From assembly GCA_964518865.1 (NCBI GenBank), contig CAZFIB010000013.1:2777-66776 (forward strand): DNA of 64,000 bases, written 5' to 3'. The first letter of the stretch is position 1. The number at the start of each line of letters is the position of its first letter. Under the pieces are notes generated by a model. That model saw nothing but the letters and a program-made list of their open reading frames with translations, was not told where the DNA came from and ran no database searches. The translations under genes and the position numbers were made by a program. This DNA comes from an uncultured Thermodesulfobacteriota bacterium (GTDB lineage Bacteria; Desulfobacterota; WTBG01; CAIYCZ01; CAIRTM01). Shown here one piece after another: positions 12,353 to 28,477 of this stretch.

Positions 12353-13177
12353 TCAGGCCGCCCCTTCTTTATCCGCTGCCGGGCGGCGCAGCAGACAGGA
12401 GAGCGCCTGCGCTGCACGCGCGGCAGTGCACCGGGCCTGCAGCACCAGAAACAGTTCAAGCGCGATTTTACAGATTTTCACAGCGGACAGGGGAGCGGAG
12501 ACCACGCGTACGCTTCCTTTCTTTACGGCGCGTATGATTTCTGCTGCATCCTTCGGTGCCTGTATCAGGGAGTAGGTGGTCCCGAACTGGCTGAGCGTGT
12601 GACTGTCCGAGGTTCCGATCAGGGGCAGGCCGAGCCCGCGGGCGAGTTTTCTGGCACGCCGGTTGAAGTCGACGGCTGTTGTATAAAAATGGCACAGCTC
12701 GATTGCATCGAAGAGCCCGGCATGCTGTATGCACCGTGAGCCCAGGCTGTGACGCGAGGGGAAAAAGGGATGGGGCGCGATTATCAGCGACGCATCGGTC
12801 CGGCAGCGCTGCAGATCGCGGAATGAACTTATTTTTTCAGGTGCTGTTTTCAGGTTGTAGGCCAGCACATGCGTGCCCTGAACGGTCAGCTCAACACCCG
12901 GTATCAGAACGATACCGCGCTCTGCAGCATAATCGCGCAGGTAGGCGGTGCAGGTCACCGTATCGTGATTGGTGATCGACAGGACATCGTAGCCCCGACG
13001 GTGCGCTTCGTCGATCAGCCCGCATGCATCGTACCTGATTTCAGGCTCTTTGTCGGATTCGCAGGTGTGCAGGTGCAGGTCGGCTTTAAGCCATGCCGGA
13101 CGGTTGTGAGCGCCGGGCGCATCAGCTGACATATGTTTCACATCATTTCTCCCGCAGGTTGATCGTTTTCCATACAA
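12353..13177 (-). CDS. PHP-domain metal-dependent phosphoesterase.
   Basis: KADLHLHTCESD ... ITNHD ... HP ... GTSDSH motifs of the polymerase/histidinol-phosphatase fold. The start is uncertain: ATG at 13177 (per the ORF track), internal ATG at 13132, or an internal GTG 6 nt after GGGAGA. Convergent with the ATPase. Confidence 0.65.
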   Translation of the reverse strand: MYGKRSTCGRNDVKHMSADAPGAHNRPAWLKADLHLHTCESDKEPEIRYDACGLIDEAHRRGYDVLSITNHDTVTCTAYLRDYAAERGIVLIPGVELTVQGTHVLAYNLKTAPEKISSFRDLQRCRTDASLIIAPHPFFPSRHSLGSRCIQHAGLFDAIELCHFYTTAVDFNRRARKLARGLGLPLIGTSDSHTLSQFGTTYSLIQAPKDAAEIIRAVKKGSVRVVSAPLSAVKICKIALELFLVLQARCTAARAAQALSCLLRRPAADKEGAA

Positions 13178-13267
13178 GACAGCATTCTACCCTGAAAAAA
13201 ATCGTATATTCACAGAATTTTACTCTAAAAACCGCTGTTCCCGGTGATTGTCGTATCGGCCCGGTAC

Positions 13268-13282
13268 TGGTACATCTGTAGC
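13268..13282 (+). promoter_or_regulatory. Candidate sigma-54 promoter upstream of the first FimT-like pilin gene.
   Basis: TGGTAC-ATCTG-TAGC. GG-N10-GC spacing is correct, with one mismatch in each element versus TGGCAC-N5-TTGC. It lies 70-100 nt upstream of the pilin ORF. Confidence 0.3.
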
Positions 13283-13355
13283 GAAATCAATCAGCATTTT
13301 TTACAGGTGTAGCATGCAACGTCCAACTGTTAAATACGAAAAAAGTGTTAAATGT

Positions 13356-13907
13356 GACATTTTGTGTAAAATTTACCTTTTCCGCATTCTGACGTACCGA
13401 CGGGGATTCTCGCTTGTCGAGCAGATGGTGGTGGTTGCCGTTATCGGAATTATTGCAGCGGTAAGTGTTCCGAACCTGGTTACGGGATTGCCGAAATACC
13501 GCGTCAGGTCCGCCGCCGTCGACCTGATATCAAAAATGCGGGTTTCGCGCTTCAAGGCCATAAAGGAAAAGCGTACCGTCAGGATGCTGTTTTATGATGA
13601 TGCAGGTATATACAGCGTTGATGGTGAGGCCTATCCGCGCAGCGGCTCTTTTGCCGAACATTACGGCAGCGGCGTCGGATACGGATTCGGCAGCGCAACC
13701 AAAAGCGCCGCCGGCGGGGGCGGCAGCCTGCCGTCCAGGCCCATAACCTTCTGGGGCAATCCGAAATATCTGGCATTCAACAGCCGGGGGCTGAGCAATC
13801 CGGGTTCGGTCTATCTGTGTAACAACAAGGGGGATGCCTATTGTATCGTAGTGAATTCCGCCGGCAGACTACGGCTTCGACACTGGACCGGCGGCGGCTG
13901 GGAGTAG
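13356..13907 (+). CDS. Type IV minor pilin / pseudopilin, FimT-FimU/GspH-like (paralogue 1).
   Basis: Class III prepilin motif RG|FSLVEQMVVVAVIGIIAAV. It is then alignable to the gene at 16898 (VPNLVTGLPKYRVRSAAVDLISKMRVSRFKAIKEKRTV vs VPSMTRGIPKYRVKSSATDLAAKLRKARWVAVKEKRDV). The C-terminus ends WTGGGWE, versus WTGGDWD in the paralogue. The start is uncertain: in-frame TTG at 13356 gives the leader MCKIYLFRILTYRRG, while the upstream ATG at 13311 gives a 30-aa leader. Confidence 0.65.
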   Translation, partial: DILCKIYLFRILTYRRGFSLVEQMVVVAVIGIIAAVSVPNLVTGLPKYRVRSAAVDLISKMRVSRFKAIKEKRTVRMLFYDDAGIYSVDGEAYPRSGSFAEHYGSGVGYGFGSATKSAAGGGGSLPSRPITFWGNPKYLAFNSRGLSNPGSVYLCNNKGDAYCIVVNSAGRLRLRHWTGGGWE

Positions 13908-14133
13908 CATCCAAGCTGTTTTAGATTTATGATATTCGCGGTTCGCGTTTTTGTCCTTTCCCTCCACCCTCTTTCCTGTGCCGCGGCCGAAAGCCGCTCC
14001 TGCCTCTTTGCCTTGCTGCCTTCTCAACATAGCGGCCATTCGTTGACTTGCCGGACGTAATCTGGTAGGTGTCTCATACACCGGAGAGGAAACGCTTCCG
14101 CGTGCTGTTCATAACCCATGGCTGCTGTCAACA

Positions 14134-16569
14134 ATGAGTTCTGAAACCATCATTTCACCGGTGTCCTCCGGGCACCAGTATCCCGGCGTGCCATCCCTAG
14201 GTAAGCTGACGGCGGTCTATTTTCTCTTTTTCGTTTCGGGCGCAACCGGTCTGGTGTACGAGGTTGTCTGGAGCCGGATGCTTGTGCTGGTGACCGGCAA
14301 TACCGCCGCTGCCACGTCGCTCATTCTGGCAGCGTTCATGGCCGGCCTCACCCTCGGAAGTTTTTTCTGGGGACGCTTTGTCGTGCAATGGCGGTTCAGC
14401 GGCCTTGTGCTGTTCGGCTGCCTCGAGGCCGCAACCGGCCTGCTGGCGCTGTGTGTGCCCGTGTGTATCAGCCGGGCCGCAGGGGTCGAAGCAGCGCTCA
14501 TGGCCGCGGTTCCCTGGCACCAGCCTGTGCGGTTCGGCTATTGTTTTCTGGTGCTTCTGGGACCTGCCTTTCTCATGGGGGGAACCTATGCCGTACTCGG
14601 GCACCACATTATCCGAAGGCGCCGCCGGTTCGGACGACATGCGTCACTGCTGTATGCCGTCAACACACTCGGTGCGGCTGCCGGCTCGCTGCTTACCGGT
14701 TTTCTGCTGATACGGCTGCTGGGGCACACGGGCAGCATTACTGCAGCGGCACTTGTCAACCTGGCAGTCGGCGGGAGTGCCCTTTTTTTCGGCCTCCGGA
14801 AAAGCCTGCTGCCGGACGTTGCCGAGCCTGACCGGCTGGGTGAGAATGGAACGTCGGGGCCGTCGGTGCCCCGGACAGTTGCCGTGACAGCTCTTGTTGC
14901 GGTGACCGTCAACGGTTTCTGCAGCATCGCCTATCAGGTGCTGTGGACGCGGCTGCTCGTGCTTGTTGTAGATAACTCCGTTTATTCGTTTGCCTTTATG
15001 CTTACCTGCTTTCTGCTCGGCATGGGGCTTGGCAGCCTCTGGCTCGGGATGCTTGACGGCTTTGTGCGCAGGCAGCCGGTTGTGACATACGGGCTGGTCT
15101 GTGCCGGTATGGGTATTTCATCCTTTTTCGTGCCCTTTTTCATAGCGTGCAGTCCGCCGGACCCGGCCCAGCCGTACTGGGTGTTCCTGCTGCAGCGGCT
15201 GCCCCCCTTTGTGTTCGTGCCGACGCTGTTTATGGGCATGAGCGTGCCGCTTGCCGCCCGACTGTATGCGGTTCGTGCCTGCGGGACGGGAAAGCGGCTG
15301 GGCATTGTGTACGGGCTCAGTACGGCAGGCGGTGTGCTGGGGGCTCTGGCAGCCGCTGTCCTGCTGCTTCCCGTGATGGGGGTTCGCACAAGCCTGCTGC
15401 TGCTGCCCGCCCTGAGCATTGTGTGCGGGGGGCTGCTGCTGGTGCAGCACTTCAAGGGTTTGCAGGCCCTGGGCGTTGCCGGCCTGATGACCGTTCTCTT
15501 CGTCACCGGGCCGCTGCTCATGCCTGAAAATTATTTTGCAGACAAATACAGCGGCCTGGAGCCGGGCAGCGAGCTGCTCTACTATGAAGAAAGCCTGGCT
15601 GCAACCGCAACGGTTTTCAGGCGTCCGGACGGCAATGTGCTGCTGTACCTGAACGGCATTCCCGAAGTCGACACCACCAGGCTGTCGGTTATGACGTTCA
15701 AGCTGCTCGGTGCGCTTCCCTGCCTGCTGCACCGTGGTCCCGGGCGCGCGCTGATGATAACATTCGGGGCAGGTATTACCTCAGGCACGGCGGCTCTGTT
15801 TGCCGACCGCGTCGACTGTGTCGACCTTGCCGGGCAGGCGCGGCGTATCGCCGCGCTGTTCAGGCCGGTCAACAACGGTGTTGCTGCGCTTCCGAACGCA
15901 ACCCTGCATATTGATGACGCGCGTCATTTTCTGCAGACCGACATGCAGCGCTATGCGGTCATTGTCTCCGATGCGACGCATCCGCGCTCCTATGACTCCT
16001 GGATACTCTATACGGAAGAGTTTTACCGCCTGGTAGCGCAGCGCCTCGGCCCCCAGGGTGTTTTCTGCCAGTGGGTGCCGTTCCACGGCCTGGCCCCGCA
16101 GCAGTTTGCAAGCATCATAGCGACATTTCACAGTGTGTTTCCTCACACATCGCTGTGGCGGATCGGGCAGGGATATGCCGTGCTTGCCGCAACACCGGAA
16201 GAACTGCGCATTGACGTAAAAAACATGTTTGCGCGTCTTTCCGCGCCTGATGTGCAGCGCGATCTGAAAATGGTGGGTCTCGACAATCTTTTTGAGCTGC
16301 TTGCCTGCTTTGTGATGGGTGAGCAGCGGGTCGGCGGCATTGCGCGTACCGCATCCACGGTCATCCGTGACAACAGCCCCGCAAACCTTTTTTTTCCGTT
16401 CACCGCGACCCTCGATGAACAGTACCAGGGATGGCCGCGGGAGAATTTCTCCCTGATCGCTCAGCATGAGGAGTCAATAGAGCCCTACCTTGCAAACATC
16501 AGCAGTAATCCAGAGGACCGCCGCAAAATTATCGACATCATGAAAAAATATGAACAGCGCCGCAGGTGA
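14134..16569 (+). CDS. Fused MFS-like polytopic membrane domain / spermidine synthase-like (aminopropyltransferase fold) protein.
   Basis: 811 aa. N-terminal ~12 TM helices beginning FLFFVSGATGLVYEVVWSRML. C-terminal SpeE-like domain ALMITFGAGITSGTAALFADRVDCVDLAGQARRIAALF...LHIDDARHFLQTDMQRYAVIVSDATHP. Confidence 0.8.
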   Translation: MSSETIISPVSSGHQYPGVPSLGKLTAVYFLFFVSGATGLVYEVVWSRMLVLVTGNTAAATSLILAAFMAGLTLGSFFWGRFVVQWRFSGLVLFGCLEAATGLLALCVPVCISRAAGVEAALMAAVPWHQPVRFGYCFLVLLGPAFLMGGTYAVLGHHIIRRRRRFGRHASLLYAVNTLGAAAGSLLTGFLLIRLLGHTGSITAAALVNLAVGGSALFFGLRKSLLPDVAEPDRLGENGTSGPSVPRTVAVTALVAVTVNGFCSIAYQVLWTRLLVLVVDNSVYSFAFMLTCFLLGMGLGSLWLGMLDGFVRRQPVVTYGLVCAGMGISSFFVPFFIACSPPDPAQPYWVFLLQRLPPFVFVPTLFMGMSVPLAARLYAVRACGTGKRLGIVYGLSTAGGVLGALAAAVLLLPVMGVRTSLLLLPALSIVCGGLLLVQHFKGLQALGVAGLMTVLFVTGPLLMPENYFADKYSGLEPGSELLYYEESLAATATVFRRPDGNVLLYLNGIPEVDTTRLSVMTFKLLGALPCLLHRGPGRALMITFGAGITSGTAALFADRVDCVDLAGQARRIAALFRPVNNGVAALPNATLHIDDARHFLQTDMQRYAVIVSDATHPRSYDSWILYTEEFYRLVAQRLGPQGVFCQWVPFHGLAPQQFASIIATFHSVFPHTSLWRIGQGYAVLAATPEELRIDVKNMFARLSAPDVQRDLKMVGLDNLFELLACFVMGEQRVGGIARTASTVIRDNSPANLFFPFTATLDEQYQGWPRENFSLIAQHEESIEPYLANISSNPEDRRKIIDIMKKYEQRRR

Positions 16570-16844
16570 TTTGCGGGATTCCGCCGGACTTTTTTTCTGC
16601 TGCATGAAGACTGCGCAAATGTCTTGAATATACGGTTTTCCGTCCGATATGAACAAAGAGGCGCGTCTGCCGCTGGTTCTGAAGCATGGTGCGAGACCAT
16701 ACCGATTATTGTGCTGTAGTGTAAAATTATTTTATAGTTACTATAAAAATAGTTTATATTTTCACGTGGCAATTATTGAAATACGGTATGTAAAATAATA
16801 AATAGTATGAAAAATCAAATATTTAAATAATTTCGGTTTTTCAG

Positions 16845-16858
16845 GGAATGATTTATGC
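16845..16858 (+). promoter_or_regulatory. Weak candidate sigma-54 promoter (GG-N10-GC) in the very AT-rich leader of the fimT2-pilWVXY1 unit.
   Basis: GGAATGATTTATGC. The spacing is correct but both hexamers are poor matches. About 40 nt upstream of the ATG at 16898. Confidence 0.15.
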
Positions 16859-16897
16859 TTTATAAGTGAAACTGAAAATTATCAGCAGGGGGAAGAA

Positions 16898-17404
16898 ATG
16901 CTTTCATCCTCAAAAGGTTTTTCCTTGGTGGAACTCATGGTTGTCGTTGCCATAGTATCATTAATGGCAATCGTGAGCGTTCCGAGCATGACACGAGGCA
17001 TACCAAAATACCGTGTCAAGTCATCCGCAACCGACCTGGCGGCTAAGCTGAGAAAGGCCCGCTGGGTGGCTGTCAAGGAAAAGCGCGATGTGTCAGCCAC
17101 CTTCGATACCTCCAGGAATAATTATATCGTTGACGGAACAGAGTTTCCCCGCACCGGCGGTCTTTCATCGTATTACGGCAGCGGTGTCACCTACGGGGTC
17201 GGTGCTACAGGTGAGCCCCAGGCCGTTGACTGCGGGGGGGCTGACATCAAAACCCTCAGTTTTAACAGCCAGGGCCTTCTGGAAGACGGAGACGCGGTCA
17301 TTCACCTGATCAACAACAAGAACAAGGTATACCGGGTCAGGATCACCGCCGCCGGCAGCATCGTTGTCCAGAACTGGACAGGCGGAGACTGGGACCCGAG
17401 CTGA
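16898..17404 (+). CDS. Type IV minor pilin FimT/FimU (GspH-like), paralogue 2.
   Basis: MLSSSKG|FSLVELMVVVAIVSLMAIV prepilin signal. 168 aa. GGAAGAAATG RBS. Confidence 0.8.
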   Translation: MLSSSKGFSLVELMVVVAIVSLMAIVSVPSMTRGIPKYRVKSSATDLAAKLRKARWVAVKEKRDVSATFDTSRNNYIVDGTEFPRTGGLSSYYGSGVTYGVGATGEPQAVDCGGADIKTLSFNSQGLLEDGDAVIHLINNKNKVYRVRITAAGSIVVQNWTGGDWDPS

Positions 17405-17452
17405 CACAGGACCGCTTTGTTATAATATATACTGCATGAGGGGTTGATCGTA

Positions 17453-18250
17453 ATGAATACAAACCGCGGATTTACTATTATCGAGCTGATGGTAGCAATG
17501 GGGGTCTTTTTTATCGCCGTCACCAGCATCTATCAGACCTATCACTATCAGCAGCGGGCATACATCAAGCAGGAGCAGGTTGTCAACATGCAGCAGGAGA
17601 CACGGGCCAGTCAGTTTTTTATCGGTCGCGATATACGCATGGCCGGCTTCGACCCGACCGGAACCGCCGAGCTTACGCTTCCCCTGGGAACCGAAAAAAT
17701 TTCCATTGCAACCGTCGGAGAGCTTGAGTTCTACATCGACGACAATGCCGACGGCGACTACTGCAGCTCAGGGGGCACCGATCCGACAAGCTGTACGCTG
17801 GATGCGCGGGAACGGGTCCGCTTCGCCCTGACCAATGATGCAGACAAAAACGGCATCGCAGACGGTTTTCCCTGCCGGCTCGGACGGGAGTACAACAACG
17901 GCGGGCTGCAGCCGGTGGCGGAAAATGTTCAGGCGCTTGAATTCTGCTACGTTCTCAATGACGGCACGGAAACGGTTGCGCCGACGGCCGACGAGCTTCC
18001 GCTGATTCAGTCGGTGTTCGTTTCCCTGCTGCTGCGCAGCAGTCAGAGGATTCACAACTATCAGAATACGGACAGCTATTTTCAGGCCGGTGCCTCTACC
18101 AATCTGACGCCAAGCTTTCGCGGATCGCGCCCGTCCGAATGGGGGCCGTTTCTGGACGGAAACGGCAACCCCGATGCGTATAAGCGCCGGCTGTCGGTTT
18201 CCAAGTTCCGTTGCCGAAACATGGGTCTCGATCCGTTCGGCGACATATAA
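17453..18250 (+). CDS. pilW: Type IV pilus minor pilin PilW-like.
   Basis: MNTNRG|FTIIELMVAMGVFFIAV then YQQRAYIKQEQ...IRMAGFDP. 266 aa, which is PilW size. Confidence 0.7.
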   Translation: MNTNRGFTIIELMVAMGVFFIAVTSIYQTYHYQQRAYIKQEQVVNMQQETRASQFFIGRDIRMAGFDPTGTAELTLPLGTEKISIATVGELEFYIDDNADGDYCSSGGTDPTSCTLDARERVRFALTNDADKNGIADGFPCRLGREYNNGGLQPVAENVQALEFCYVLNDGTETVAPTADELPLIQSVFVSLLLRSSQRIHNYQNTDSYFQAGASTNLTPSFRGSRPSEWGPFLDGNGNPDAYKRRLSVSKFRCRNMGLDPFGDI

Positions 18251-18293
18251 GCTGCTGCGGTGCCTGTCAGGCACTGCTGCCGGAGGACACTAC

Positions 18294-18779
18294 ATGAAAC
18301 GATCTGCTACAGTACACAACCAGCGCGGATTCACCCTGCTGGAGGTCATTATTGCGGTTATGGTTCTTACGGTCGGCCTGGTCAGCACGGCGGCCATGCA
18401 GACGCGGGCCGTTGACGAGTCAAACGAGGCCTACCGGCAAAGCGAGCGTGTCATGAACTCCGAATACTGGATGGAAGATCTCATCAACCGCCCGGTCGTT
18501 GCCGACCGCGAGATCGAGCCTGATGAAATTTTCAGCGACAACTGTACCGGGGATCGGGAATGTGCCGACGGAAGCTGGTTTGACTCATCGTCGGTCGGGG
18601 TCGCCGCGTCAAGCAGCAGCAGCTACCGGGTTGTCCCCGGCAACCCCATGCCGTTTTTGATGACCATTGAAGTGAGAACCGAGCCCAGCTACGGGCACGG
18701 CGGCAGCGACGATCGTGATGCATGGCTTGATAAAAAAGCCGTAACGTTTTCCTATATCCGCTCGTCGCGATATAACTGA
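18294..18779 (+). CDS. pilV: Type IV pilus minor pilin PilV-like.
   Basis: MKRSATVHNQRG|FTLLEVIIAVMVLTVGLVSTAAMQTRAV. 161 aa. Start taken at the internal ATG 18294 of ORF 18174..18779. Confidence 0.7.
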   Translation: MKRSATVHNQRGFTLLEVIIAVMVLTVGLVSTAAMQTRAVDESNEAYRQSERVMNSEYWMEDLINRPVVADREIEPDEIFSDNCTGDRECADGSWFDSSSVGVAASSSSSYRVVPGNPMPFLMTIEVRTEPSYGHGGSDDRDAWLDKKAVTFSYIRSSRYN

Positions 18780-18849
18780 GTCCCGCAGGCGGGCTCCGAG
18801 CCTGCCGGGGGCAGTAACGCAAACACTACATAGAAAGCGGGTAGGTACG

Positions 18850-19521
18850 ATGATGCGCAATGATTCCGCCCTCGGCAATCAAAACGGCGTTGTGCTGGTG
18901 CTGTCGATATTCATGCTGGCGCTGCTTTCGATGATCGGAATGGCATCCATGATGCTTGGCACCTCCGAAATCGAAATTTCGGCAGGTGAAAAACATCACA
19001 AGGTCGCTTTTTACCAGGCGGAGTCCGGCCTGTCCATCGCGGCGGAGATCATTGAACAGCTTGACGGGTATGAATCGGTTTCCGACAATTTCCTTTTTGA
19101 CGACAACAGCACCATCGAGGTGGTGGACGGAGACTTTCTGTTCGAAAGCAAGGAAGTCAGTCAGGCAACCGGTATCTGGGACAAGGACAACCAGACCCAG
19201 GATTCGGTAAACATAAAAAAAAGAGGCCAGTCGGGTGAATCCATGTATCCGTATCTTGCCTCAGGGTCGACGCCCGATATCGTCGTCCGGTACTATACGG
19301 ACGATTCCCAGACAAACTATTCTATCGATATGAGTGTTGATGTCGACAAGGTCGGTGTGCGGCATGTAGTCGGAGGCGGTGCGGAATTCGGAGCCGGATC
19401 CCAGGGTATCGGGGTTGCATCGCACCGCGTGATTTATAATCTTGACTGTATCGCCACGCTGCCGGGCAGCAACCGAAACCCGCAAAATCACATTCTGGGC
19501 TATCAGCTGCTGCCTCGGTAG
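18850..19521 (+). CDS. pilX: Type IV pilus assembly protein PilX-like.
   Basis: QNGVVLVLSIFMLALLSMIGMASMMLGTSEIEISAGEKHHKVAFYQAESGL matches the PilX N-terminal domain pattern (hydrophobic helix, then EI..AG..........AF..AE.GL). Confidence 0.65.
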   Translation: MMRNDSALGNQNGVVLVLSIFMLALLSMIGMASMMLGTSEIEISAGEKHHKVAFYQAESGLSIAAEIIEQLDGYESVSDNFLFDDNSTIEVVDGDFLFESKEVSQATGIWDKDNQTQDSVNIKKRGQSGESMYPYLASGSTPDIVVRYYTDDSQTNYSIDMSVDVDKVGVRHVVGGGAEFGAGSQGIGVASHRVIYNLDCIATLPGSNRNPQNHILGYQLLPR

Positions 19522-19577
19522 CCCGCAACCCGAATTTCCGGGCCAGGCCCTGTGCGGCACGGCCGGGAGGAGTCGCC

Positions 19578-22500
19578 ATGAAGCTATACTACAGGTGGAT
19601 TGTACTGCTGCTCGCTGCGTTGTATCTCGCGGGCGCGGCGGATGCCCAGGCGGTCGAGCCCGATGTCGCCGACTATGCCAACCCCCCGATGTTTTTAACG
19701 GCTGATGTGCCGCCGCTGGTCATGCTGGTTATGGGACGCGACCACAAGCTGTATTATGAAGCCTATAACGATGCGTCCGACCTTGACGAGGACGGAAACC
19801 TCGATGTGGGGTTCGATCCGTCAATCGACTACTACGGCTATTTCGACTGTTACAAGTGCTATGAGTACAATTCGTCGAACAGCCGCTTCGAACCCCTGTC
19901 GGTAACGGCCGACAAAAAATGCACCAATGCCTGGAGCGGCAATTTCCTGAACTATGCCACCATGTCCCGCATGGATACGCTGCGCAAGGTTCTTTACGGC
20001 GGCAGGCGCTCGACCGACACGGCGACCGAAACCGTGCTGGAGCGGGCCTATATTCCGAAAGATGCCCACTCCTGGGGCAAGGAGTATCACAGCATAGCCC
20101 GCGACGGCTATGATATCAGCGACTACACCCCGCTCAGCGAGCCCCAGGGCGGCACCTATCACCAGTTTGTCAGCACAACGCTTTCGGACGCGGGCGACCC
20201 CCTGATGCGCGTGCTTGAAAACACCATTTACCGCGTCTGGGAGTGGGTGTCGATCGAGCGGCCTGTGGCCAGCGACAGGGCCCTGCACGGCGGCAGCGGC
20301 CCGTCGATTACCGATAACGGTGCTACCGGGGACCCGGAAGACGTCACGCTGGGCGGCAGCGCCGGCACCGCCAGCGACAATGCGGCCGGCGGCACTACCA
20401 CCACGGATGACGATTTCGACGACGACAGCCTGGACGCCATGTGGACCACCGCCGACCACGATACCGACCCCGGAACGACGTTTCAGGAGACCGGCCAGGA
20501 GCTCGTCATCACGGCAGCCGGCGCCGACGTGTGGACGAGTTCGGACGAATTCGGGGTCGTCTACCTTGACGATGTTACCGGCAATTTCGACGTCAGGGTT
20601 CAGGTCACCCAGCAGCAGAATACCAACGAATGGGCCAAGTGCGGCATCATGGTCAGGAACGACATGACCCAGCCGGGCTCTTCGACCGGCTACTGCATCA
20701 TGGGTGTGACACCCGGCAACGGGCACTCGTTTCAGTACGATAACAACGATAACGGTTTCCTTGACTCGCATGTCACCAACACCGGCGTCTCCCTGCCGCG
20801 CTGGGTTCGCCTGACCAAGGTCGGCACCACGTTCACCGCCTACCGCTCGGGCGACGGCGTCAACTGGACCGAGCACACGACCCAGACCATTTCTTCGGCC
20901 GCCACAACCCAGGACGTGGGCCTGTTCGTGACTTCCCACAGCGGCGGCAACCTGAGCGAGTGTCACTTCGATAATTTCTATATGGAACAGACCGCCAACG
21001 CGGATCCGGCGTTCGCCTTTGACGACAACACGTCGACCAAGTGGCTCATAGCCGATGAGCCGAGCCTTGCCGATCCCGCCTGCATACAGTTCGCGTTCGA
21101 CTCCGCGCAGCGCGTCCTTAAGTACACCATTACAACGGCCAACGATGCCGAAGGGCGCGACCCCAGGACCTGGATTCTTGCCGGCTCCAACAATGAAGTC
21201 GACTGGACCGAGATCGACACGGTTGTCAACGGCGCGCTGCCCGCGGACCGCGAGGAAGAGACGGAGTTTATCTGCTCAAATCCGCCCGGCGACAACGAGA
21301 CCTATATCTACTACCGGCTGTGCATATCGGACACGAAGGATGCGGGCGTGCCGGGTGTGCAGATCGGCGAGATCGAGTTCCTGACGTCCCTCGACCCGGT
21401 GCCGGCAACCGCCACGCTGACGGACTATGTTGTGCGCGTGCAGGTGGGGGTGGCCTCGATGCCCGAAGAAAACGCCAAGATGTACGGCGAAGGCGCCTCT
21501 GCCGTGTACAAGCCGATCGGCCTTTTGCAGCGCCACGGGGAAAACGAACGAATGTACTTCGGGCTTATAACCGGGTCGTATGCCAAAAATACCTCGGGCG
21601 GCGTGCTGCGCAAGGGCATCCGCTCAATCGCCGATGAAATCAATCTCACGACCGGGCAGTTTACCTCGGTCAACGGGATTCTCAACACGATCGACACGCT
21701 GCGAATCGTCGACTTCAGCTACAGCAACAATTCATACAACAGCAACTGCGGCTGGATCACGACCCGGCCGATCAACGAGGGCGAGTGCCGCATGTGGGGA
21801 AATCCGCTCGCCGAGATGATGTATGAGGGCCTGCGGTATTTCGGCGGCAAATCCGCCGGCACGGCAGACTATGACTATTCCTCGGGCGATGACGTCGATC
21901 TCGGTCTTCCCAAGGATTCCTGGATCGATCCCTACGACCCGTCGATCGGCTACGGCAAGTGCGCCCAGGCGGTCATGCTGGTCATGAGCGATGTCAACCC
22001 CTCGTTCGACTCCGACCAGCTTCCCGGAGTCGACAGTAACTTCGGCTCGTTCAGCGCCGCCCTGGAAGACCACAGCGGCGGGCCGGACCTCGACGTTGCG
22101 ACGCTGGCCGATGTGATCAGCGCCCAGGAGGGCATATCCGGCAACTATTTCATCGGTCAGCAGGACACGACCTACGACGGGGCCTGCACCGAAAAGTCAG
22201 TCAGCGGCTTCGGCGATATCCGCGGCCTGTGCCCCGAAGAGCCGACCAAAAAGGGCAGCTACTACTCGGCTGCGGTTGCCTATTTCGGCCAGACCGCCGA
22301 CATAAGCGCCGAGGAGGACAATCAGACCGTCATGACCTATGCCGTTGGCCTGTCCTCACCGCTGCCGCGCATCGAGATACCGTTTCCGGGCCAGACCGTC
22401 ACCCTGGTGCCCTTTGCCAAGTCGGTCGGCGGATCGAGCATCAGCGCGGCCCGCGGCAGCTTTCAGCCGACAAACACCATTGTCGATTTTTATGTCGATG

Positions 22501-25500
22501 TCATCGAGCCCACCTACGGCAGGTTCAGGATCAACTACGAAGACGTTGAGCAGGGCGCCGACCATGACATGGACGCCATAGCATTCTACGAGTATCAGCT
22601 GGTGGACGCTGCCGGTGACCCGACCGACAATGCAAGCCTTGCAGTCGGAATCGATGTTACGCTCACCTCCGAGTATGCGGCCGGCGGCATCGCCCAGCAC
22701 ATGGGGTATATCATCTCGGGAACCACGCAGGACGGCATTTACCTCGAGATTCGCGACTGCGACACGGCCAACCCCGCAGGCGTCGACCCCTGCGACGGCA
22801 ACAACCCTTCGACCGACCCGGACTATTTTCTCGATACGCCTCCGGGCATCGGGCCGAATCAGGGCGCAGGCGACACCAACTGGGATGACGATGCGCCCCT
22901 GCCGCTGCAGACCACCAGAAATTTTACGCCCGCGCCGGCGGGGACGGGGTCGGCCAACCTGCTGGAAAACCCGCTCTGGTTTGCCGGCAAGTACGGCGGG
23001 TTCGACGACAAAAACAACAACGATCTGCCCGACCTGCAGGAGGAATGGGATGATGACGCCGACGGCGTGCCGGACAACTACTACTATGTCGTAAACCCCC
23101 TGAAGCTCGAGGAGGAACTCAACCGCACCTTTGCCGACATCCTGAAGCGCACCGGCTCGGGTACGTCCGTCTCGGTTCTGGCAACCAAGGGCGAGGGCGA
23201 GGGAACCCTTGTACAGGCCTACTTCAAGCCCAAGGTAACCGGCCCCAGCGCTCTCTACGACGTGATCTGGGTCGGCTACCTGCAGTCGCTCTGGATCGAC
23301 CGCTACGGCAATACGCGCGAGGATTCCAATCACAACTATACGCTCGACCTGTACGAAGACGACATCGTCAGGTTTTATCTGGACAATAACGAGACGCGCT
23401 TCAGGCGCTACGAGGTTACGGTGGACGATCCCTACGCCGAGAACAATCCGGCGGTGGACGATTTTCCGCTCGATGACCTTGAGCCCATCTGGGAGGCGGG
23501 TGAGCTGCTGGCGCTGCAGCCCGAAAGCCAGCGTAAAATCTTTACCTATATCGGACCGGGCACCGAACTCGAACCTGACACAAACAAAATCGAGTTCAAC
23601 GAAATGAACATCGATCAGATAAAAAGTTATCTGGGTGTCGAGGACAGCGCCTGGGACTATCTGGGCACATCCTACGAGGACCGGGCCGCAAACCTCATAC
23701 GCTTCGTGCGCGGCGTTGAGGATGACGATCCGCCGTCGGTCTATAACTATGAGCCCGGCCATCAGATCCGGCCGCGCAAGCTCGAACTCAGCGACGCTTC
23801 GCTTGCCACGTGGAAGCTCGGGGATATTGTCTACTCCACACCGCTGTCCATTTCAAAGCCGGTTGAAAACTACGGCCTGCTCTATGATGACGATTCTTAC
23901 AAGAATTATTACGGCATGTACAGGGACAGGGAAACCGTGGTGTACGTTGGGGCCAATGACGGCATGATTCATGCGTTCACCTCCGGGGTCTTCCGGCTCG
24001 AGGACCAGAAGTTTTACAGTATTCACGATGTCGATTCCGGTTACAACCTCTCTGAAATCCCCGACACGCTGGGAATTGGCGATGTGCCGCTGGGCAGCGA
24101 GCTGTGGGCCTACATTCCCCAGAACCTGCTGCCGCACCTGAAGTTTCTGCCGGACCGTGACTATCCGCACGTGTCCTATGTCGATTTGCGGCCGAAGGTG
24201 GTCGATGCCAAGGTCTTTGCCGATGACGGTACGCACCCCGAGGGCTGGGGAACGATTCTGATCGGCGGCCTCAACATGGGCGGCAAGCAGATCTCCACAG
24301 CGAGTGCGGGAACGTTTAAGCCCTGCTTTTTCGCCATCGATATCACCAACCCCCGCAACCCGGTCCTGATGTGGGAAAAAACCTACACCGGGCTCGGTTT
24401 CGCATCCAACGAGCCGGCAGTCATAAAAGTCGAGGATGAGTGGATGCTTGCCATCGGGTCGGGCCCCACCGACTTTGACGGATCGAGCACGCAGAACGCC
24501 AAGGTGTTCATCGTCGATCTTGCAACCGGCACCCTCCTGCAGACGTTTACCGCTGCGGAGGGCAGCTCCGTCATGAACGCTCCGGTGGCGCTCGACAAGG
24601 GCCTCAATTTCAATGTCGACGCGATTTTCGCGGGCGCCACCTATCCCGATGCAGGCAGCCTGAAGGCAAAGGTGTACCGCGTCACCGTGCCCCAGACCGG
24701 CTCGGACTTCGATCCGGCGGCGGATGCCGAGTACATACCCGACCCGACCGACAGCAAGTGGAACATGGTCAGGGTGTTCGACTCGCCGCGGCCGCTTTCA
24801 GCGCCGTTTTCGCTCAGCGTCGACAAATTCGACAACAACTGGATTTTCTGCGGCACCGGACGGTACATCGAAACCTCTGATAAAACCAATACCGATCAGA
24901 ACTATATTTTCGGGCTCAAGGACCCCTTCTTCAATCCGGACAACAATACGACCTGCTACGGCCATTATCCGGCGGTGGAGTGCGAGCTGACCACAGCCGA
25001 CCTGTTCAATGCCGAGCTTTTTAAAGATCAGATTCACAGCACCGGCCAGATCGACCCGGTCAACATCGACGGTGAAACCGTGGACAGCTTTTCCGAGCTC
25101 CTCAACCAGGCGCGCAAAGACGACTACCGCGGGTGGTACCGGTATATGTGTCAGGGCCGTACCGATGAGGACGGCAACTGCTACCCTGCCGGCCCCTCGG
25201 AGAGAAATATCAGCAAGCCGTCTGTCCTGGGCGGGATAGTGCTGGTGCCGTCGTTTTCACCCAATGAGGATATCTGCGGTTTCGGCGGCAACGGCCGGCT
25301 GTTCGCGCTGTATTATGAAACCGGCACGTCATACCAGCGCAGAATCGTCGGTGCCATGGATCAGGATATCGTGCTGGATGTGGTGTCCCTCGGCGAGGGG
25401 CTTCCCTCGAGCTTCGGTATTCATGTCGGCCTCGAAGAGGGCGGCACCCTGTACAGCCAGGACAGTACCGGCAAAATTCTGCAGATCGATATTACCCCGG

Positions 25501-25547
25501 CCTTCAATCCCAAAAGCGCCCCGATTTACTGGCGTGAAGAGCCCTGA
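19578..25547 (+). CDS. pilY1: PilY1-like type IV pilus tip adhesin (1989 aa) with inserted ConA/LamG-like and discoidin (F5/8 type C)-like modules and a C-terminal PilY1 beta-propeller.
   Basis: Signal peptide MKLYYRWIVLLLAALYLAGAADAQA. N-terminal PilY1 region (YEAYNDASDLDEDGNLDVGFDPSIDYYGYFD). LamG-like segment ~20405-20985. Discoidin-like segment ~21001-21385 (FAFDDNTSTKWL...WILAGSNNEVDWTEI). Propeller from ~23700 (GDIVYSTPL...VYVGANDGMIHAF). Ca-binding loop DPVNIDGETVDS at 25053-25088. Confidence 0.85.
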   Translation: MKLYYRWIVLLLAALYLAGAADAQAVEPDVADYANPPMFLTADVPPLVMLVMGRDHKLYYEAYNDASDLDEDGNLDVGFDPSIDYYGYFDCYKCYEYNSSNSRFEPLSVTADKKCTNAWSGNFLNYATMSRMDTLRKVLYGGRRSTDTATETVLERAYIPKDAHSWGKEYHSIARDGYDISDYTPLSEPQGGTYHQFVSTTLSDAGDPLMRVLENTIYRVWEWVSIERPVASDRALHGGSGPSITDNGATGDPEDVTLGGSAGTASDNAAGGTTTTDDDFDDDSLDAMWTTADHDTDPGTTFQETGQELVITAAGADVWTSSDEFGVVYLDDVTGNFDVRVQVTQQQNTNEWAKCGIMVRNDMTQPGSSTGYCIMGVTPGNGHSFQYDNNDNGFLDSHVTNTGVSLPRWVRLTKVGTTFTAYRSGDGVNWTEHTTQTISSAATTQDVGLFVTSHSGGNLSECHFDNFYMEQTANADPAFAFDDNTSTKWLIADEPSLADPACIQFAFDSAQRVLKYTITTANDAEGRDPRTWILAGSNNEVDWTEIDTVVNGALPADREEETEFICSNPPGDNETYIYYRLCISDTKDAGVPGVQIGEIEFLTSLDPVPATATLTDYVVRVQVGVASMPEENAKMYGEGASAVYKPIGLLQRHGENERMYFGLITGSYAKNTSGGVLRKGIRSIADEINLTTGQFTSVNGILNTIDTLRIVDFSYSNNSYNSNCGWITTRPINEGECRMWGNPLAEMMYEGLRYFGGKSAGTADYDYSSGDDVDLGLPKDSWIDPYDPSIGYGKCAQAVMLVMSDVNPSFDSDQLPGVDSNFGSFSAALEDHSGGPDLDVATLADVISAQEGISGNYFIGQQDTTYDGACTEKSVSGFGDIRGLCPEEPTKKGSYYSAAVAYFGQTADISAEEDNQTVMTYAVGLSSPLPRIEIPFPGQTVTLVPFAKSVGGSSISAARGSFQPTNTIVDFYVDVIEPTYGRFRINYEDVEQGADHDMDAIAFYEYQLVDAAGDPTDNASLAVGIDVTLTSEYAAGGIAQHMGYIISGTTQDGIYLEIRDCDTANPAGVDPCDGNNPSTDPDYFLDTPPGIGPNQGAGDTNWDDDAPLPLQTTRNFTPAPAGTGSANLLENPLWFAGKYGGFDDKNNNDLPDLQEEWDDDADGVPDNYYYVVNPLKLEEELNRTFADILKRTGSGTSVSVLATKGEGEGTLVQAYFKPKVTGPSALYDVIWVGYLQSLWIDRYGNTREDSNHNYTLDLYEDDIVRFYLDNNETRFRRYEVTVDDPYAENNPAVDDFPLDDLEPIWEAGELLALQPESQRKIFTYIGPGTELEPDTNKIEFNEMNIDQIKSYLGVEDSAWDYLGTSYEDRAANLIRFVRGVEDDDPPSVYNYEPGHQIRPRKLELSDASLATWKLGDIVYSTPLSISKPVENYGLLYDDDSYKNYYGMYRDRETVVYVGANDGMIHAFTSGVFRLEDQKFYSIHDVDSGYNLSEIPDTLGIGDVPLGSELWAYIPQNLLPHLKFLPDRDYPHVSYVDLRPKVVDAKVFADDGTHPEGWGTILIGGLNMGGKQISTASAGTFKPCFFAIDITNPRNPVLMWEKTYTGLGFASNEPAVIKVEDEWMLAIGSGPTDFDGSSTQNAKVFIVDLATGTLLQTFTAAEGSSVMNAPVALDKGLNFNVDAIFAGATYPDAGSLKAKVYRVTVPQTGSDFDPAADAEYIPDPTDSKWNMVRVFDSPRPLSAPFSLSVDKFDNNWIFCGTGRYIETSDKTNTDQNYIFGLKDPFFNPDNNTTCYGHYPAVECELTTADLFNAELFKDQIHSTGQIDPVNIDGETVDSFSELLNQARKDDYRGWYRYMCQGRTDEDGNCYPAGPSERNISKPSVLGGIVLVPSFSPNEDICGFGGNGRLFALYYETGTSYQRRIVGAMDQDIVLDVVSLGEGLPSSFGIHVGLEEGGTLYSQDSTGKILQIDITPAFNPKSAPIYWREEP

Positions 25548-25659: not shown

Positions 25660-27462
25660 ATGAAAGAGCGGCTGACCCTCCAGGATTACTGCGACATACT
25701 GTTGCGGCAGAAGGCGATTACCGCCGAGAGCCGCGCGATGCTGCTTTCACAGGAGTCGGAGCAGCGCGAAAAGCTTGAAAAGATTCAGGAGCTCAAGGGC
25801 GATGCGGGTGACTTTGCCGTCACCCCGGCTGAAATCATCGCCTCGCTGCACATAACCGATGCGCGCAGCAACACGGATCAGCTGACCGAGGAGGCGGTCA
25901 TGCGCGAGGTGGCCGCAGCCCTGGGGTTCGATTTCAAGAAGATCGACCCGCTTGAGCTCGACCTCGACGTGGTCACGCGCACTGTCTCGAAAGCCTTTGC
26001 CGTCAGGAGCCTGGCGGTTCCCATAGAGCTTCAAAACGGCGTGCTGAAAGTCGCGATGGTCGATCCCCTCAACCGGGAAATCGTGGACGACATTCACAAG
26101 GTTCACAAGCTGAACGTCACGCCGGTGATGAGCACCAAGTCCGATATCGTCAAGCTCATCCAGGAGTTTTACGGGTTCAAGCAGTCGGTGGTCAAGGCCG
26201 AGCGCGAGCTGGTGGCGCCGTTCAGCGATATCGGCAACCTCGAGCAGTACGCACGCCTGGGAACCGTCGGGGAAATCGAGTCGACCGACAAGTATATTCA
26301 AAACGCGGTGGACTACCTCTTCCGCTACGCGTTCGAGCAGCGCGCCAGCGATATTCATATCGAGCCCAAGCGGGAAAAAAGCATCGTGCGCTTCCGTATC
26401 GACGGGCTGCTGTATCCGATCTACTCGGTACCCGGCGTTGTGCACAATGCCATGATTTCGCGCATCAAGTCGATATCCCGGCTCAATATCGCCGAAAAGC
26501 GCCGGCCGCAGGACGGCAGGATCAAGCTGCAGCATGACGAGCGCGAGGTGGAAATACGCGTTTCCACCGTGCCGGTGGCGTTCGGCGAAAAAGCCGTGCT
26601 GCGCGTCCTGAATCCGGAGGTGCTGTTTCAGGACCTTGAGATGCTCGGCTTCGATGCCGGCGAACTCATCCGGTATCGCGGTTTTCTCGATCAGCCCAAC
26701 GGCATTATACTGTTTACCGGCCCGACCGGCAGCGGCAAGACGACCTCGCTGTACTCCTCGCTCAGGTTTCTTTCCTCGACCGAGACGAATATAACCACCA
26801 TCGAAGATCCCATCGAGATGGTCTGCGAGGACTATAACCAGATCGCCGTGCAGCCGGCGGTGGGCATCACCTTCGCCTCCATACTGCGCACCATTCTCAG
26901 GCAGGATCCCGATATCATAATGGTCGGTGAGATACGCGACCGGGAGACGGCCCGCAATGCCATCCAGGCCGCCCTGACCGGCCACCTTGTGCTGAGCACC
27001 CTGCACACCAATGACGCATCCTCCGCGGTTACGCGTCTCATCGATCTTGAGATCGAGCCGTTTCTGATAAGCTCGACCCTCATCGGCGTTGTTGCCCAGC
27101 GCCTGGTCCGCACGGTCTGCCCGCGCTGCACGGAGTCATACGATCTGACGCGGGAGGATTTCGAAGGCCTGGGCCTGCAGCTGCCCCCCGACAACCGCGA
27201 TGAGGTGATAACCATGAAACGCGGTACGGGGTGCCTGCACTGCCGGTCGACCGGGTATGTCGGCAGGGAGGCGGTTTTTGAAATTCTGAGCATTACCGAA
27301 AAAGTGCGCACGCTGATCAACCGGAGTGCCCATGCAGAGTCGATACGCAAAACCGGGCAGTCCGAAGGCATGAAGCTTCTCAGGGAAAGCGCCGTGCAGA
27401 AGGTGCTCAAAGGCAGAACCACCTACAACGAGGTGCTGCGGTGCATCAGCCAAGAAGCCTGA
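25660..27462 (+). CDS. pilB: GspE/PilB-family secretion ATPase (type IV pilus extension ATPase-like) with an N-terminal T2SSE_N domain and a tetracysteine zinc motif.
   Basis: Walker A GPTGSGKTT. Asp and His boxes. CPRC...CLHC. Confidence 0.85.
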   Translation: MKERLTLQDYCDILLRQKAITAESRAMLLSQESEQREKLEKIQELKGDAGDFAVTPAEIIASLHITDARSNTDQLTEEAVMREVAAALGFDFKKIDPLELDLDVVTRTVSKAFAVRSLAVPIELQNGVLKVAMVDPLNREIVDDIHKVHKLNVTPVMSTKSDIVKLIQEFYGFKQSVVKAERELVAPFSDIGNLEQYARLGTVGEIESTDKYIQNAVDYLFRYAFEQRASDIHIEPKREKSIVRFRIDGLLYPIYSVPGVVHNAMISRIKSISRLNIAEKRRPQDGRIKLQHDEREVEIRVSTVPVAFGEKAVLRVLNPEVLFQDLEMLGFDAGELIRYRGFLDQPNGIILFTGPTGSGKTTSLYSSLRFLSSTETNITTIEDPIEMVCEDYNQIAVQPAVGITFASILRTILRQDPDIIMVGEIRDRETARNAIQAALTGHLVLSTLHTNDASSAVTRLIDLEIEPFLISSTLIGVVAQRLVRTVCPRCTESYDLTREDFEGLGLQLPPDNRDEVITMKRGTGCLHCRSTGYVGREAVFEILSITEKVRTLINRSAHAESIRKTGQSEGMKLLRESAVQKVLKGRTTYNEVLRCISQEA

Positions 27463-27959
27463 AAAGCAAACTCAAAACACTCGAGGAGCTGCGGGACATC
27501 ATCGCCGGCATGAAACGCGAGGGAAAGCGCATCGTGTTCACCAACGGCTGTTTCGATATCCTGCACGCGGGGCATGTGTGTCTGCTGGAGGAGGCGCGCC
27601 GGCAGGGCGATGCGCTGGTTGTCGCCATGAACAGCGACCGCTCGGTAGCCGGTCTCAAGGGCGCCGGCAGGCCTGTGGTGCCCGAGCATCTTCGCGCGCA
27701 GGTGCTGGGGGCCCTGGAATCTGTCGACTATGTGGTCATCTTCGACGAGCCCGACCCACTGTGCCAGATCAGCACCGTCGTTCCCGATATACTTGTAAAG
27801 GGAGGCGACTGGAAGCCGGAACAGATCGTCGGACGAGATGTCGTGGAGCGGGCCGGCGGGCGCGTGGTGACGATTCCGCTAAAGTATGGCGCTTCTACAA
27901 CCGATATAATAAGCACGGTTATCAAAAAACACTCATATCGGTATGATTCAGGGCCATGA
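27441..27959 (+). CDS. D-glycero-beta-D-manno-heptose-1-phosphate adenylyltransferase-like cytidylyltransferase (HldE domain II / RfaE2 type).
   Basis: IVFTNGCFDILHAGHVCLL...NSDRSVAGLKGAGRPVVPEHLRAQVLGALESVDYVVIFDE...LVKGGDW is near-colinear with E. coli HldE C-domain motifs. It overlaps the pilB 3' end by 22 nt. Confidence 0.8.
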   Translation: MHQPRSLKSKLKTLEELRDIIAGMKREGKRIVFTNGCFDILHAGHVCLLEEARRQGDALVVAMNSDRSVAGLKGAGRPVVPEHLRAQVLGALESVDYVVIFDEPDPLCQISTVVPDILVKGGDWKPEQIVGRDVVERAGGRVVTIPLKYGASTTDIISTVIKKHSYRYDSGP

Positions 27960-28477
27960 ACTCAGGCAGCGTACAGGATGGGGGGCAGGTATGTCCTATG
28001 ACGGCTGATCAGGCAAAAAGGGTGCGCGGGTCACAGTTGCAGGGGGTGGAGAAACGGAAATTCCAGCGCCTCGATTTCCCGCTGCAGGTACAGGTAACGG
28101 TTGTTACCGAGGAGGATCCCGCAGGACAGGACCCCTCCTGCATCGCCAAATGTCTCAATGTTTCTTTGCAGGGCATATGCCTTGAAACCCCGAACATACT
28201 GCTCGGCCCCTTCAATATCCTTTCGGGCTCACCCGGTTCCCGGGAATATATTCTCAGGCTTGCATTCAGCTGTTTGCCGGACACGGCACCGGTGATCGCC
28301 ACCGGGCAGGTGTGCTGGTATGATGTTGCCTGCGAGAGCGATGATTTCAGATATCAGGTAGGAATAGTGTTTCTTGAAATCGAGGGCGACGGCAGGGAGC
28401 AGCTGAAGCGTTTTCTCAAGACAAACAGAAAAAAAACAGGCTTTTTCCAGTCACTTTGGGCACGGGTTGCCCATTGA
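27956..28477 (+). CDS. PilZ-domain protein (c-di-GMP binding).
   Basis: RxxxR motif (EKRKFQRLDF) and D/NxSxxG motif (LNVSLQGICL). The start may instead be the internal ATG at 27998. It overlaps the preceding gene by 4 nt. Confidence 0.7.
   Translation: MNSGSVQDGGQVCPMTADQAKRVRGSQLQGVEKRKFQRLDFPLQVQVTVVTEEDPAGQDPSCIAKCLNVSLQGICLETPNILLGPFNILSGSPGSREYILRLAFSCLPDTAPVIATGQVCWYDVACESDDFRYQVGIVFLEIEGDGREQLKRFLKTNRKKTGFFQSLWARVAH

Follow-up and report, generated by a model that had tools for sequence, protein, structure and literature searches.

A fused MFS/SpeE-like membrane protein gene recurrently placed beside minor-pilin and PilY1 genes in Desulfobacterota

Introduction

Minor pilins and PilY1 prime the assembly of type IV pili and form an adhesive, sensing tip. 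We know of no component with a spermidine synthase (SpeE) fold or a major facilitator superfamily (MFS) domain in any described minor-pilin/PilY1 system. The window analyzed here, a stretch of 64,000 nucleotides (nt) from contig CAZFIB010000013.1 of an uncultured Thermodesulfobacteriota bacterium, carries a seven-gene minor-pilin/PilY1 locus on its plus strand, and the second gene of this locus encodes an 811-amino-acid (aa) protein that joins an MFS domain to a SpeE-like domain. What is this protein, and does it belong to the pilus locus beside which it is encoded?

An earlier note on this DNA took the fusion gene for an insertion into a pilin operon and suggested that its product modifies pilins or PilY1. 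In this study, we determined the family, folds, predicted topology, and active-site residues of the 811-aa protein and surveyed the neighborhoods of its homologs. We tentatively propose, with slightly less than even confidence, that the fusion gene serves a type IVa-like minor-pilin/PilY1 priming-complex locus as an accessory gene in this Desulfobacterales lineage and that it encodes an NF037959 inner-membrane protein with a periplasmic SpeE-like domain. The family is already catalogued; what appears to be new is its recurrent placement beside minor-pilin and PilY1 genes.

Materials and methods

All coordinates refer to the window. Open reading frames (ORFs) were listed and searched against Pfam and NCBIfam. 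The 811-aa protein was modeled with AlphaFold2, and the models were searched with Foldseek. Active-site residues were mapped by sequence alignments to 1uir (Thermus thermophilus) and 1inl (Thermotoga maritima numbering).

The homolog sample comprised 66 loci (cited as L003 and so on) from species-representative genomes, together with several metagenome contigs. The orthologue group consisted of 23 loci at species level, with proteins that share 42% identity or more with that of the window; about 45 homologs were more distant. The loci were scanned for pilus genes using the pilus proteins of the window as queries, together with strict and relaxed prepilin motifs. Neighbor ORFs of all loci were clustered to find recurrent contexts.

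Results

Layout of the minor-pilin/PilY1 locus

The gene order read in the earlier note was recovered at the same positions by ORF listing, Pfam, and NCBIfam: GspH/FimT-like pilin 1, the 811-aa fusion, GspH/FimT-like pilin 2, PilW-, PilV-, and PilX-like genes, and PilY1. The features of the locus are as follows.

13314..13907, plus strand: GspH/FimT-like minor pilin copy 1 (PF12019 GspH 30.4 bits, N_methyl 24.2 bits)
13908..14133: spacer between pilin copy 1 and the fusion gene, 226 nt (227 nt stop-to-start)
14134..16569, plus strand: 811-aa fused MFS/SpeE-like protein (NF037959, PF01564, structure models)
16570..16897: spacer between the fusion gene and pilin copy 2, 328 nt (329 nt stop-to-start), AT-rich
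16898..17404, plus strand: GspH/FimT-like minor pilin copy 2 (N_methyl 28.2 bits, GspH 19.8 bits, TIGR01708 N-terminal match)
17444..18250, plus strand: PilW-like minor pilin (N_methyl 27.6 bits; PF16074 PilW 16.4 bits, cut-off 26)
18294..18779, plus strand: PilV-like minor pilin (N_methyl 30.6 bits; TIGR02523 PilV 43.8, cut-off 52.2)
18850..19521, plus strand: PilX-like protein (PF14341 PilX_N 21.6 bits, cut-off 25.5)
19578..25547, plus strand: PilY1-like tip protein, 1989 aa (PF05567 47.5 bits, cut-off 28.1, aa 1414-1782)
25660..27462, plus strand: PilB/TfpB-like assembly ATPase with an MshEN N-terminal domain (T2SSE 411 bits, MshEN 64 bits)

N_methyl matched four pilin-like genes at 24-31 bits, and class III signal-peptide motifs are visible in the translations. 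The PilW, PilV, and PilX family scores are all under their cut-offs; sizes and gene order are consistent with the labels. The longest ORF of the PilV-like gene begins at 18174, and the PilX-like gene has tblastn matches to PilX-like genes of L012 and L019. Ahead of its propeller, at aa 302-553, PilY1 carries DUF1349 (30.5 bits, LamG-like) and F5_F8_type_C (28.1 bits, discoidin-like) matches; orthologues of 1921-1957 aa are present in L003, L012, and L019. The PilB/TfpB-like ATPase scored 624.5 bits with NF053534 TfpB, under the cut-off of 850, and its orthologue lies downstream of the fusion gene in L003 and L013.

The 811-aa protein joins an MFS transporter fold to a SpeE fold

The 811-aa gene product is an inner-membrane protein of NF037959 ('fused MFS/spermidine synthase'), a catalogued and functionally uncharacterised family, with 115.4 bits against a cut-off of 40. 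PF01564, the match that the earlier note had expected, was found at 27.5 bits (cut-off 22.9) and was the only Pfam match at E ≤ 0.01; no match of O-antigen-ligase, GT-C, or sulfatase type was obtained. The literature search returned no functional study of the NF037959 family.

The fused architecture was borne out by these matches and by structure models. The full-length AlphaFold2 model, built with 24 orthologues, reached a predicted local distance difference test (pLDDT) score of 88.9 and a predicted template modeling (pTM) score of 0.89. An MFS domain with 12 transmembrane (TM) helices (aa ~22-439) is followed by TM13 (aa 443-462), a SpeE-fold domain (aa ~476-690), and a helical C-terminal extension up to aa 811.

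For the C-terminal domain, Foldseek returned the T. thermophilus aminopropyltransferase structures 1uir and 3anx (E 2e-10), and phmmer matched 1uir at E 7e-12. The spermidine-synthase fold signature that had been read from the letters is present as the FGAG and LHIDDAR motifs. The N-terminal part (aa 1-470) was modeled separately (pLDDT 89.0), and its top 50 PDB matches in Foldseek were all of MFS type (NorA, VMAT1/2, G6PT, SV2A; E ~4e-6), with alignments of ~440 columns and TM-scores of 0.64-0.71 normalized to the target. Because this model matches only MFS-type transporters, the MFS label given in the earlier note is structurally justified. The best matches are cation, amine, and drug antiporters (NorA, VMAT), and the spermine-bound structure 9d7x was also matched. 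The motif YE/QxxW(S/T)R occurs in both six-helix halves, as YEVVWSR in TM1 and YQVLWTR in TM7, and the charged residues E43, R48, and R273 of TM1/TM7 are conserved.

The SpeE-like domain is predicted to be periplasmic

Hydropathy gives 13 membrane helices in the whole protein; the count of about 12 in the earlier note holds for the MFS domain and is one short of the total predicted. Averaged over 24 orthologues, the N-terminus and even-numbered loops carry ~23 Lys and Arg residues, compared with ~4 in the odd-numbered loops. Because the positive charges are concentrated on one side, an N-in/C-out orientation is predicted, in which the SpeE-like domain is most likely periplasmic. Two observations on tetratricopeptide repeat (TPR) proteins agree with this placement. 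The TPR gene just downstream of the fusion gene in L003 and L013 encodes a signal peptide, and in many distant homologs TPR repeats are fused after the SpeE-like domain. The L003 TPR gene was also considered as a dedicated partner of the fusion protein; this assignment is uncertain, as the gene resembles PilF/PilW/Tgl-type pilotins (TIGR02521, 132 bits against 154).

The active site departs from that of spermidine synthase

In SpeE enzymes, a gatekeeper acid selects decarboxylated S-adenosylmethionine (decarboxy-SAM) over S-adenosylmethionine (SAM), and a Tyr and the second Asp of the DSTDP motif position the amine substrate. The 811-aa protein keeps FGxG, the acidic residue after strand 2, IDDAR, and Asp613 at the catalytic position. 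The gatekeeper loop GGG(D/E)G reads TFGAG, with Ala546 in place of the acid; T. maritima Tyr76 corresponds to Thr521; and DSTDP reads D613-A-T-H616-P, with the first Asp retained and an invariant His616 at the position of the second. Because the gatekeeper acid, Tyr76, and the second Asp are all replaced, the protein is not a canonical spermidine synthase. This identity was ruled out by the motifs together with equivalog scores far under the cut-offs, namely 37.8 against 249.55 for TIGR00417, 45.8 against 260 for PRK00811, and 125.5 bits against 472 for PRK03612 (NF002956, membrane-anchored SpeE), whose alignment (aa 249-668) spans the second membrane repeat and the SpeE domain. The aminopropyltransferase domain of the earlier note therefore stands as a SpeE fold, without three of the residues that define spermidine synthase and in a predicted periplasmic position. 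Judged from its sequence, the 811-aa protein is not an enzyme of polyamine biosynthesis in the usual sense.

The departures are strictly kept. D613, H616, P617, D595/R597, and Y620-D621-S622 are invariant in the 24 orthologues, and T521 and A546 nearly so (Ala546 in at least 90%); D-x-T-H-P remains at least 90% conserved once distant homologs are included. Such strict conservation argues for a real but different catalytic function, and the predicted periplasmic site and the missing SpeE residues make a different set of modification chemistries plausible.

These features bear on two alternatives. A genuine polyamine aminopropyltransferase could work at the membrane while the fused MFS domain exports its product to the cell surface, so that the link to the pilus would be indirect. 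The retention of Asp613 and IDDAR in a SpeE fold fits this explanation, as does the likeness of the MFS domain to cation and amine transporters and to spermine-bound 9d7x. However, the equivalog scores are far too low, the three substrate-recognition residues are replaced family-wide, and the predicted periplasmic domain would be cut off from decarboxy-SAM; we consider this explanation quite improbable. The second alternative, and the one nearest to the idea of the earlier note, is a membrane-anchored SAM-dependent transferase that faces the cytoplasm and modifies the prepilin N-terminus or some other part of the machinery exposed there. In SpeE, the gatekeeper acid keeps out the SAM carboxylate; its replacement by Ala546 would be compatible with SAM binding, and the gene adjoins pilin genes. 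Nevertheless, the 13 helices and the strong, conserved positive-inside bias place the domain outside, the TPR partners either are exported or follow the domain in a fusion, and prepilin N-methylation is normally performed by the prepilin peptidase. A cytoplasmic transferase seems equally doubtful to us.

Linkage to minor-pilin/PilY1 clusters recurs

A minor-pilin/PilY1 cluster adjoins the fusion gene in six of the 23 orthologue loci. Besides the window, the linked loci are arranged as follows.

L003/L015: pilins, PilX, DsbC, PilY1, fusion gene (4-nt overlap with PilY1), TPR, PilB
L019: PilY1, then the fusion gene after 125 nt
L012 (Desulfamplus magnetovallimortis): fusion gene convergent with PilY1
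L006: fusion gene divergent from a FimT/PilW/PilV set, with another FimT-like pilin on the other side
L013: contig ends at the fusion gene; downstream TPR-PilB synteny the same as in L003

In L003, the overlap of the fusion gene with the PilY1 stop by 4 nt implies an operon. In the neighbor-joining tree, L003, L006, L013, and L019 form a clade (bootstrap 88) that is basal to the other orthologues (82), and the window and L012 fall at separate places among orthologues without the linkage, so that linked loci occur in at least three lineages. The pilus link is more than a one-off. Most simply, the ancestor of the orthologue group probably already had it; some lineages then retained it across repeated rearrangement, and many lost it. 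Its retention at 42-47% protein identity and the overlapping stop and start argue for selection.

The neighborhood conservation that the earlier note proposed to test holds at the other linked loci and fails at the remaining 17 orthologue loci and at all intact distant homologs. Among the ~45 distant homologs, pilin adjacency was seen only in L070, whose gene copy is fragmentary. Because 17 loci are unlinked, any dependence on pilus genes does not require linkage in cis.

The L012 fusion gene seems to mark the edge of its pilus locus. Upstream of it (L012:2860-8483), the minus strand carries numerous short ORFs, among them a duplicated gene of ~222 aa.

Searches for literature that links spermidine synthase to minor pilins or PilY1, or that describes the fusion family, gave nothing relevant beyond a table entry for GSU2502 (see below). 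The recurrent placement of the fusion gene in minor-pilin/PilY1 loci appears to be unreported in the searchable literature.

The fusion gene lies upstream of a compact operon

From 16898 onward, intergenic gaps are at most 113 nt and several genes overlap. The fusion gene sits between this tight operon and a solitary upstream pilin paralogue, so the 'interrupted' operon of the earlier note was an overstatement; it is more accurate to say that the gene precedes the operon and neighbors an extra pilin paralogue. Its long spacers on both sides suggest separate transcription, and in the window it is probably transcribed apart from the operon fimT2-pilW-pilV-pilX-pilY1-pilB.

The spacers themselves hold few signals. 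The first (13908-14133) has a weak CGCG-GUU-CGCG hairpin followed by U5, and the second (16570-16897) has a weak hairpin and a T7 run after the fusion-gene stop; fold z-scores are near 0 in both, and the terminator scan and folding gave no convincing intrinsic terminator in either. Sigma-70-like hexamers (TTTATA-18-TATATT) lie at 16731-16760 in the second spacer. The promoter-like and terminator-like matches in the spacers are weak and at chance level. A strong ribosome-binding site, GGGGGAAG, precedes the start of pilin copy 2 at 16898. No riboswitch or leader RNA was found in the spacers when the whole window, and 12900-17000 separately, were scanned with Rfam. No sigma-54 consensus (TGGCAC-N5-TTGCW, at most 2 mismatches) was found in the spacers, and the 19 matches found compare with 36.6 expected. 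A Cache/PAS histidine kinase and a sigma-54-dependent response regulator are encoded at 4932-8377, 5 kb upstream of the pilus locus; PilR-type control by this pair is unsupported, with no sigma-54 promoter consensus near the pilin genes.

The spacers also bear on the explanation that the pilus genes are coincidental neighbors, the fusion protein having a general envelope or small-molecule transport role and its synteny with the pilus locus being inherited and slowly decaying. The long spacers and promoter-like hexamers of the window suggest a separate transcription unit; 17 of the 23 orthologues lie elsewhere, in at least eight contexts; and four of the six linked loci fall in one clade. Yet the linkage persists at 42-47% identity, through multiple rearrangements and at three or more positions in the tree, the L003 overlap implies an operon, and the probability of chance adjacency to a PilY1 cluster is ~1% per locus by a rough estimate. 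We regard coincidence as possible but rather unlikely.

The two FimT-like pilins are probable local duplicates

The two FimT-like genes had been read as paralogues, and they are: both carry G|FSLVE, and they share 42% identity over 175 residues (E 6e-48). The start of pilin copy 1, which the earlier note set at 13356, needs correction, since no start codon lies there; the candidates are ATG 13314, TTG 13362, and TTG 13248. An independent gene call of 197 aa uses ATG 13314. The G|FSLVE cleavage motif starts at 13404, and the leader before it would have 14 to 53 residues depending on the start codon (13248-13410); from ATG 13314, it is an unusually long leader of 31 residues, without a clear ribosome-binding site. 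Pilin copy 1 may be poorly expressed or decaying.

The pair is 42% identical to each other and 25-31% identical to homologs at other loci. Because the two genes are closer to each other than to those of other loci, local duplication is favored over foreign arrival, as far as the sequences tell. The suggestion that the insertion came with one pilin copy, read as a foreign copy, was rejected, as the FimT-like genes of the window are mutual closest relatives.

Many distant homologs lie in clusters that resemble a cytochrome-nanowire operon

Many distant homologs share a conserved cluster with OmcS-like cytochromes: L029 (7248-22377), L028, L036, L037, L042, L043, L046, L047, L058, and L061. The order in L029 is as follows.

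L029: NHL-type propeller, OmcS-like multihaem cytochrome, fusion gene, YNCE-type propeller lipoprotein, ~720-aa protein, GNA1162-like lipoproteins, peptidyl-prolyl isomerase, multihaem cytochromes

This order is the one reported for the omcS-companion (osc) operon of Geobacter sulfurreducens, in which GSU2502, annotated 'spermidine synthase', adjoins omcT and omcS (PMC10599522). Other osc genes are reported, in a passage of PMC13194489 that cites Shen et al. 2025, to take part in the folding, secretion, and morphology of OmcS nanowires. Members of the osc-type subfamily are 61-68% identical among the best 120 matches. The few named sources come from several phyla, Eisenbacteria, Gemmatimonadales, and Deltaproteobacteria among them, a pattern suggestive of very strong constraint or of horizontal spread. 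None of the osc-type neighbors (OmcS-like multihaem cytochromes, a peptidyl-prolyl isomerase, beta-propeller and channel-like genes) was found among the larger ORFs of the window scanned with Pfam; they are seen only near distant homologs, L029 among them.

Other contexts also recur. Upstream of the fusion gene in L002 (6782-8839) lies a gene whose 685-aa product has a signal peptide and is an exported double WD40 beta-propeller, and L073 has a similar context. PMT_2 (GT-C glycosyltransferase-like) and TPR proteins, sometimes in multiple copies, occur in L058 (13064-14707) and L035 (7625-9646, minus strand), which hints at a periplasmic protein-modification neighborhood. What the family's neighbors have in common is that they encode exported or surface proteins, many of them beta-propellers, and TPR modules.

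A non-catalytic role would also suit such neighbors. As a scaffold or chaperone, the SpeE-like domain and its TPR partners would bind exported filament proteins such as PilY1-like propellers during assembly, with the MFS domain only an anchor. Exported beta-propellers (PilY1, NHL, YNCE, double WD40) do recur beside the family, and TPR fusions are common in it. Against this, the invariant FGxG, D595, D613, H616, and Y620-D621-S622 and the conserved E43, R48, and R273 suggest an active enzyme and transporter, and we find a pure scaffold highly improbable.

Other features of the window

The cluster extends beyond 25547 with the PilB/TfpB-like ATPase gene and two further genes.

27441-27959, plus strand: RfaE domain II-type adenylyltransferase (TIGR02199 188.7 bits, cut-off 181.5)
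27956-28477, plus strand: PilZ-domain protein (PF07238 PilZ 39 bits)

The reading frame of the RfaE domain II-type heptose-1-phosphate adenylyltransferase starts before that of the PilB-like ATPase has ended, and the PilZ gene overlaps the adenylyltransferase gene in turn. This trio is an odd grouping, and its overlaps may reflect co-translation with the pilus ATPase.

The rest of the window holds housekeeping genes according to a Pfam scan of the larger ORFs. A tRNA gene and a small signal recognition particle RNA lie side by side at 32671-32883, just upstream of a dnaX-like gene. A 605-aa ORF at 41-1858 has no Pfam match at E ≤ 1e-5.

Discussion

The 811-aa protein belongs to NF037959, has MFS and SpeE folds with altered SpeE motifs, and recurs beside minor-pilin and PilY1 genes. 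As an accessory factor of the priming-complex locus, it might act in the following way. The MFS domain would move a small cationic molecule to the periplasmic face of the membrane. The 13th helix would take the chain across the membrane to a periplasmic SpeE-fold (class I Rossmann) domain, which may act on the cationic molecule or apply it to a filament-machinery component that has been exported. A TPR partner may take part in some loci. Post-translational modification of pilins or PilY1, as put forward in the earlier note, is at this point a hypothesis only.

Several points weigh against the accessory role. In the window, the fusion gene stands apart from the pilin genes by spacers of 227 nt and 329 nt. 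Within 10 kb of the fusion gene, pilus genes are absent at 17 of the 23 orthologue loci; the contexts of these loci are heterogeneous (at least eight), and the six linked cases are non-independent if the linkage descends from one ancestral arrangement. The predicted topology is based on the positive-inside rule only. To our knowledge, the periplasm does not contain SAM or decarboxy-SAM; a periplasmic SAM-type transferase would require export of the donor, for which we know of no precedent. GSU2502 is placed in the family by annotation and position only, and no named Geobacter protein is among the best 120 matches of the L029 protein.

A bolder version can be stated, in which NF037959 is a new class of envelope enzyme whose MFS domain passes a cytoplasmic donor, SAM-derived or of polyamine type, to the SpeE-fold domain of the same protein in the periplasm; that domain would then covalently modify exported filament proteins (minor pilins or PilY1 in pilus loci, OmcS-type nanowire components in osc clusters). 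We consider it unlikely. If true, it would represent the first periplasmic SAM-type or aminoalkyl transfer and a maturation step common to two unrelated filament systems.

On the tentative proposal of an accessory gene, the fusion protein may be an unstudied pilus accessory factor. Its pilus and nanowire contexts point to a possible common accessory step in the building of extracellular filaments by sulfate and metal reducers, and a predicted periplasmic SpeE-fold domain raises the question of which donor could be used outside the cytoplasm. Family members occur in the cultured Desulfamplus magnetovallimortis (pilus-linked) and, by annotation, in Geobacter sulfurreducens (GSU2502). Should the link prove to be decaying synteny, the 'spermidine synthase' annotation of many such proteins would still be corrected.

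Comparison with known systems

Within NF037959, the 811-aa protein scores above the cut-off and has the same MFS plus SpeE-like architecture, and it shares the motifs DxTHP, HPRxYDSW, and QWxPxHG with distant members. We know of no experimental function for any member. Like the osc-type members, the window gene lies beside extracellular-filament genes; unlike them, the 811-aa protein, 31-35% identical to the osc-type proteins, has no fused TPR tail and is encoded near type IV pilus genes rather than multihaem cytochromes.

Compared with SpeE of T. thermophilus (1UIR/3ANX) and T. maritima (1INL), the protein has the same fold, IDDAR, and the Asp at the catalytic position. It differs in having Ala for the gatekeeper acid, Thr for Tyr76, and His for the second DSTDP Asp, and in a domain that is joined to 13 TM helices and predicted to be periplasmic. 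A precedent for altered chemistry on a SpeE scaffold is plant putrescine N-methyltransferase, a SpeE-derived enzyme whose donor switched from decarboxy-SAM to SAM. In that enzyme, a shift in donor or chemistry went together with the disappearance of the gatekeeper Asp from the glycine-rich loop. However, the plant enzyme is soluble, cytosolic, and eukaryotic, and the likeness does not imply methyltransferase activity in the 811-aa protein.

The locus resembles fimU-pilVWXY1E of Pseudomonas aeruginosa and the priming clusters of Myxococcus xanthus in having GspH/FimT-, PilW-, PilV-, and PilX-like genes and PilY1 in the same order. Distinct from fimU-pilVWXY1E, it has an extra FimT-like paralogue and the MFS/SpeE-like gene upstream, an assembly ATPase gene instead of a PilE-like gene after PilY1, and a PilY1 of ~1989 aa with DUF1349 and discoidin-like inserts. 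The pilin-modifying enzymes TfpO/PilO, TfpW, and Neisseria PptA are polytopic inner-membrane proteins with periplasm-facing catalysis and are encoded beside their pilin substrates, and they offer an analogy for the proposed role of the 811-aa protein. Their folds are unrelated to it, and as donors they use lipid-linked glycans or phospholipids, which are present in the periplasm.

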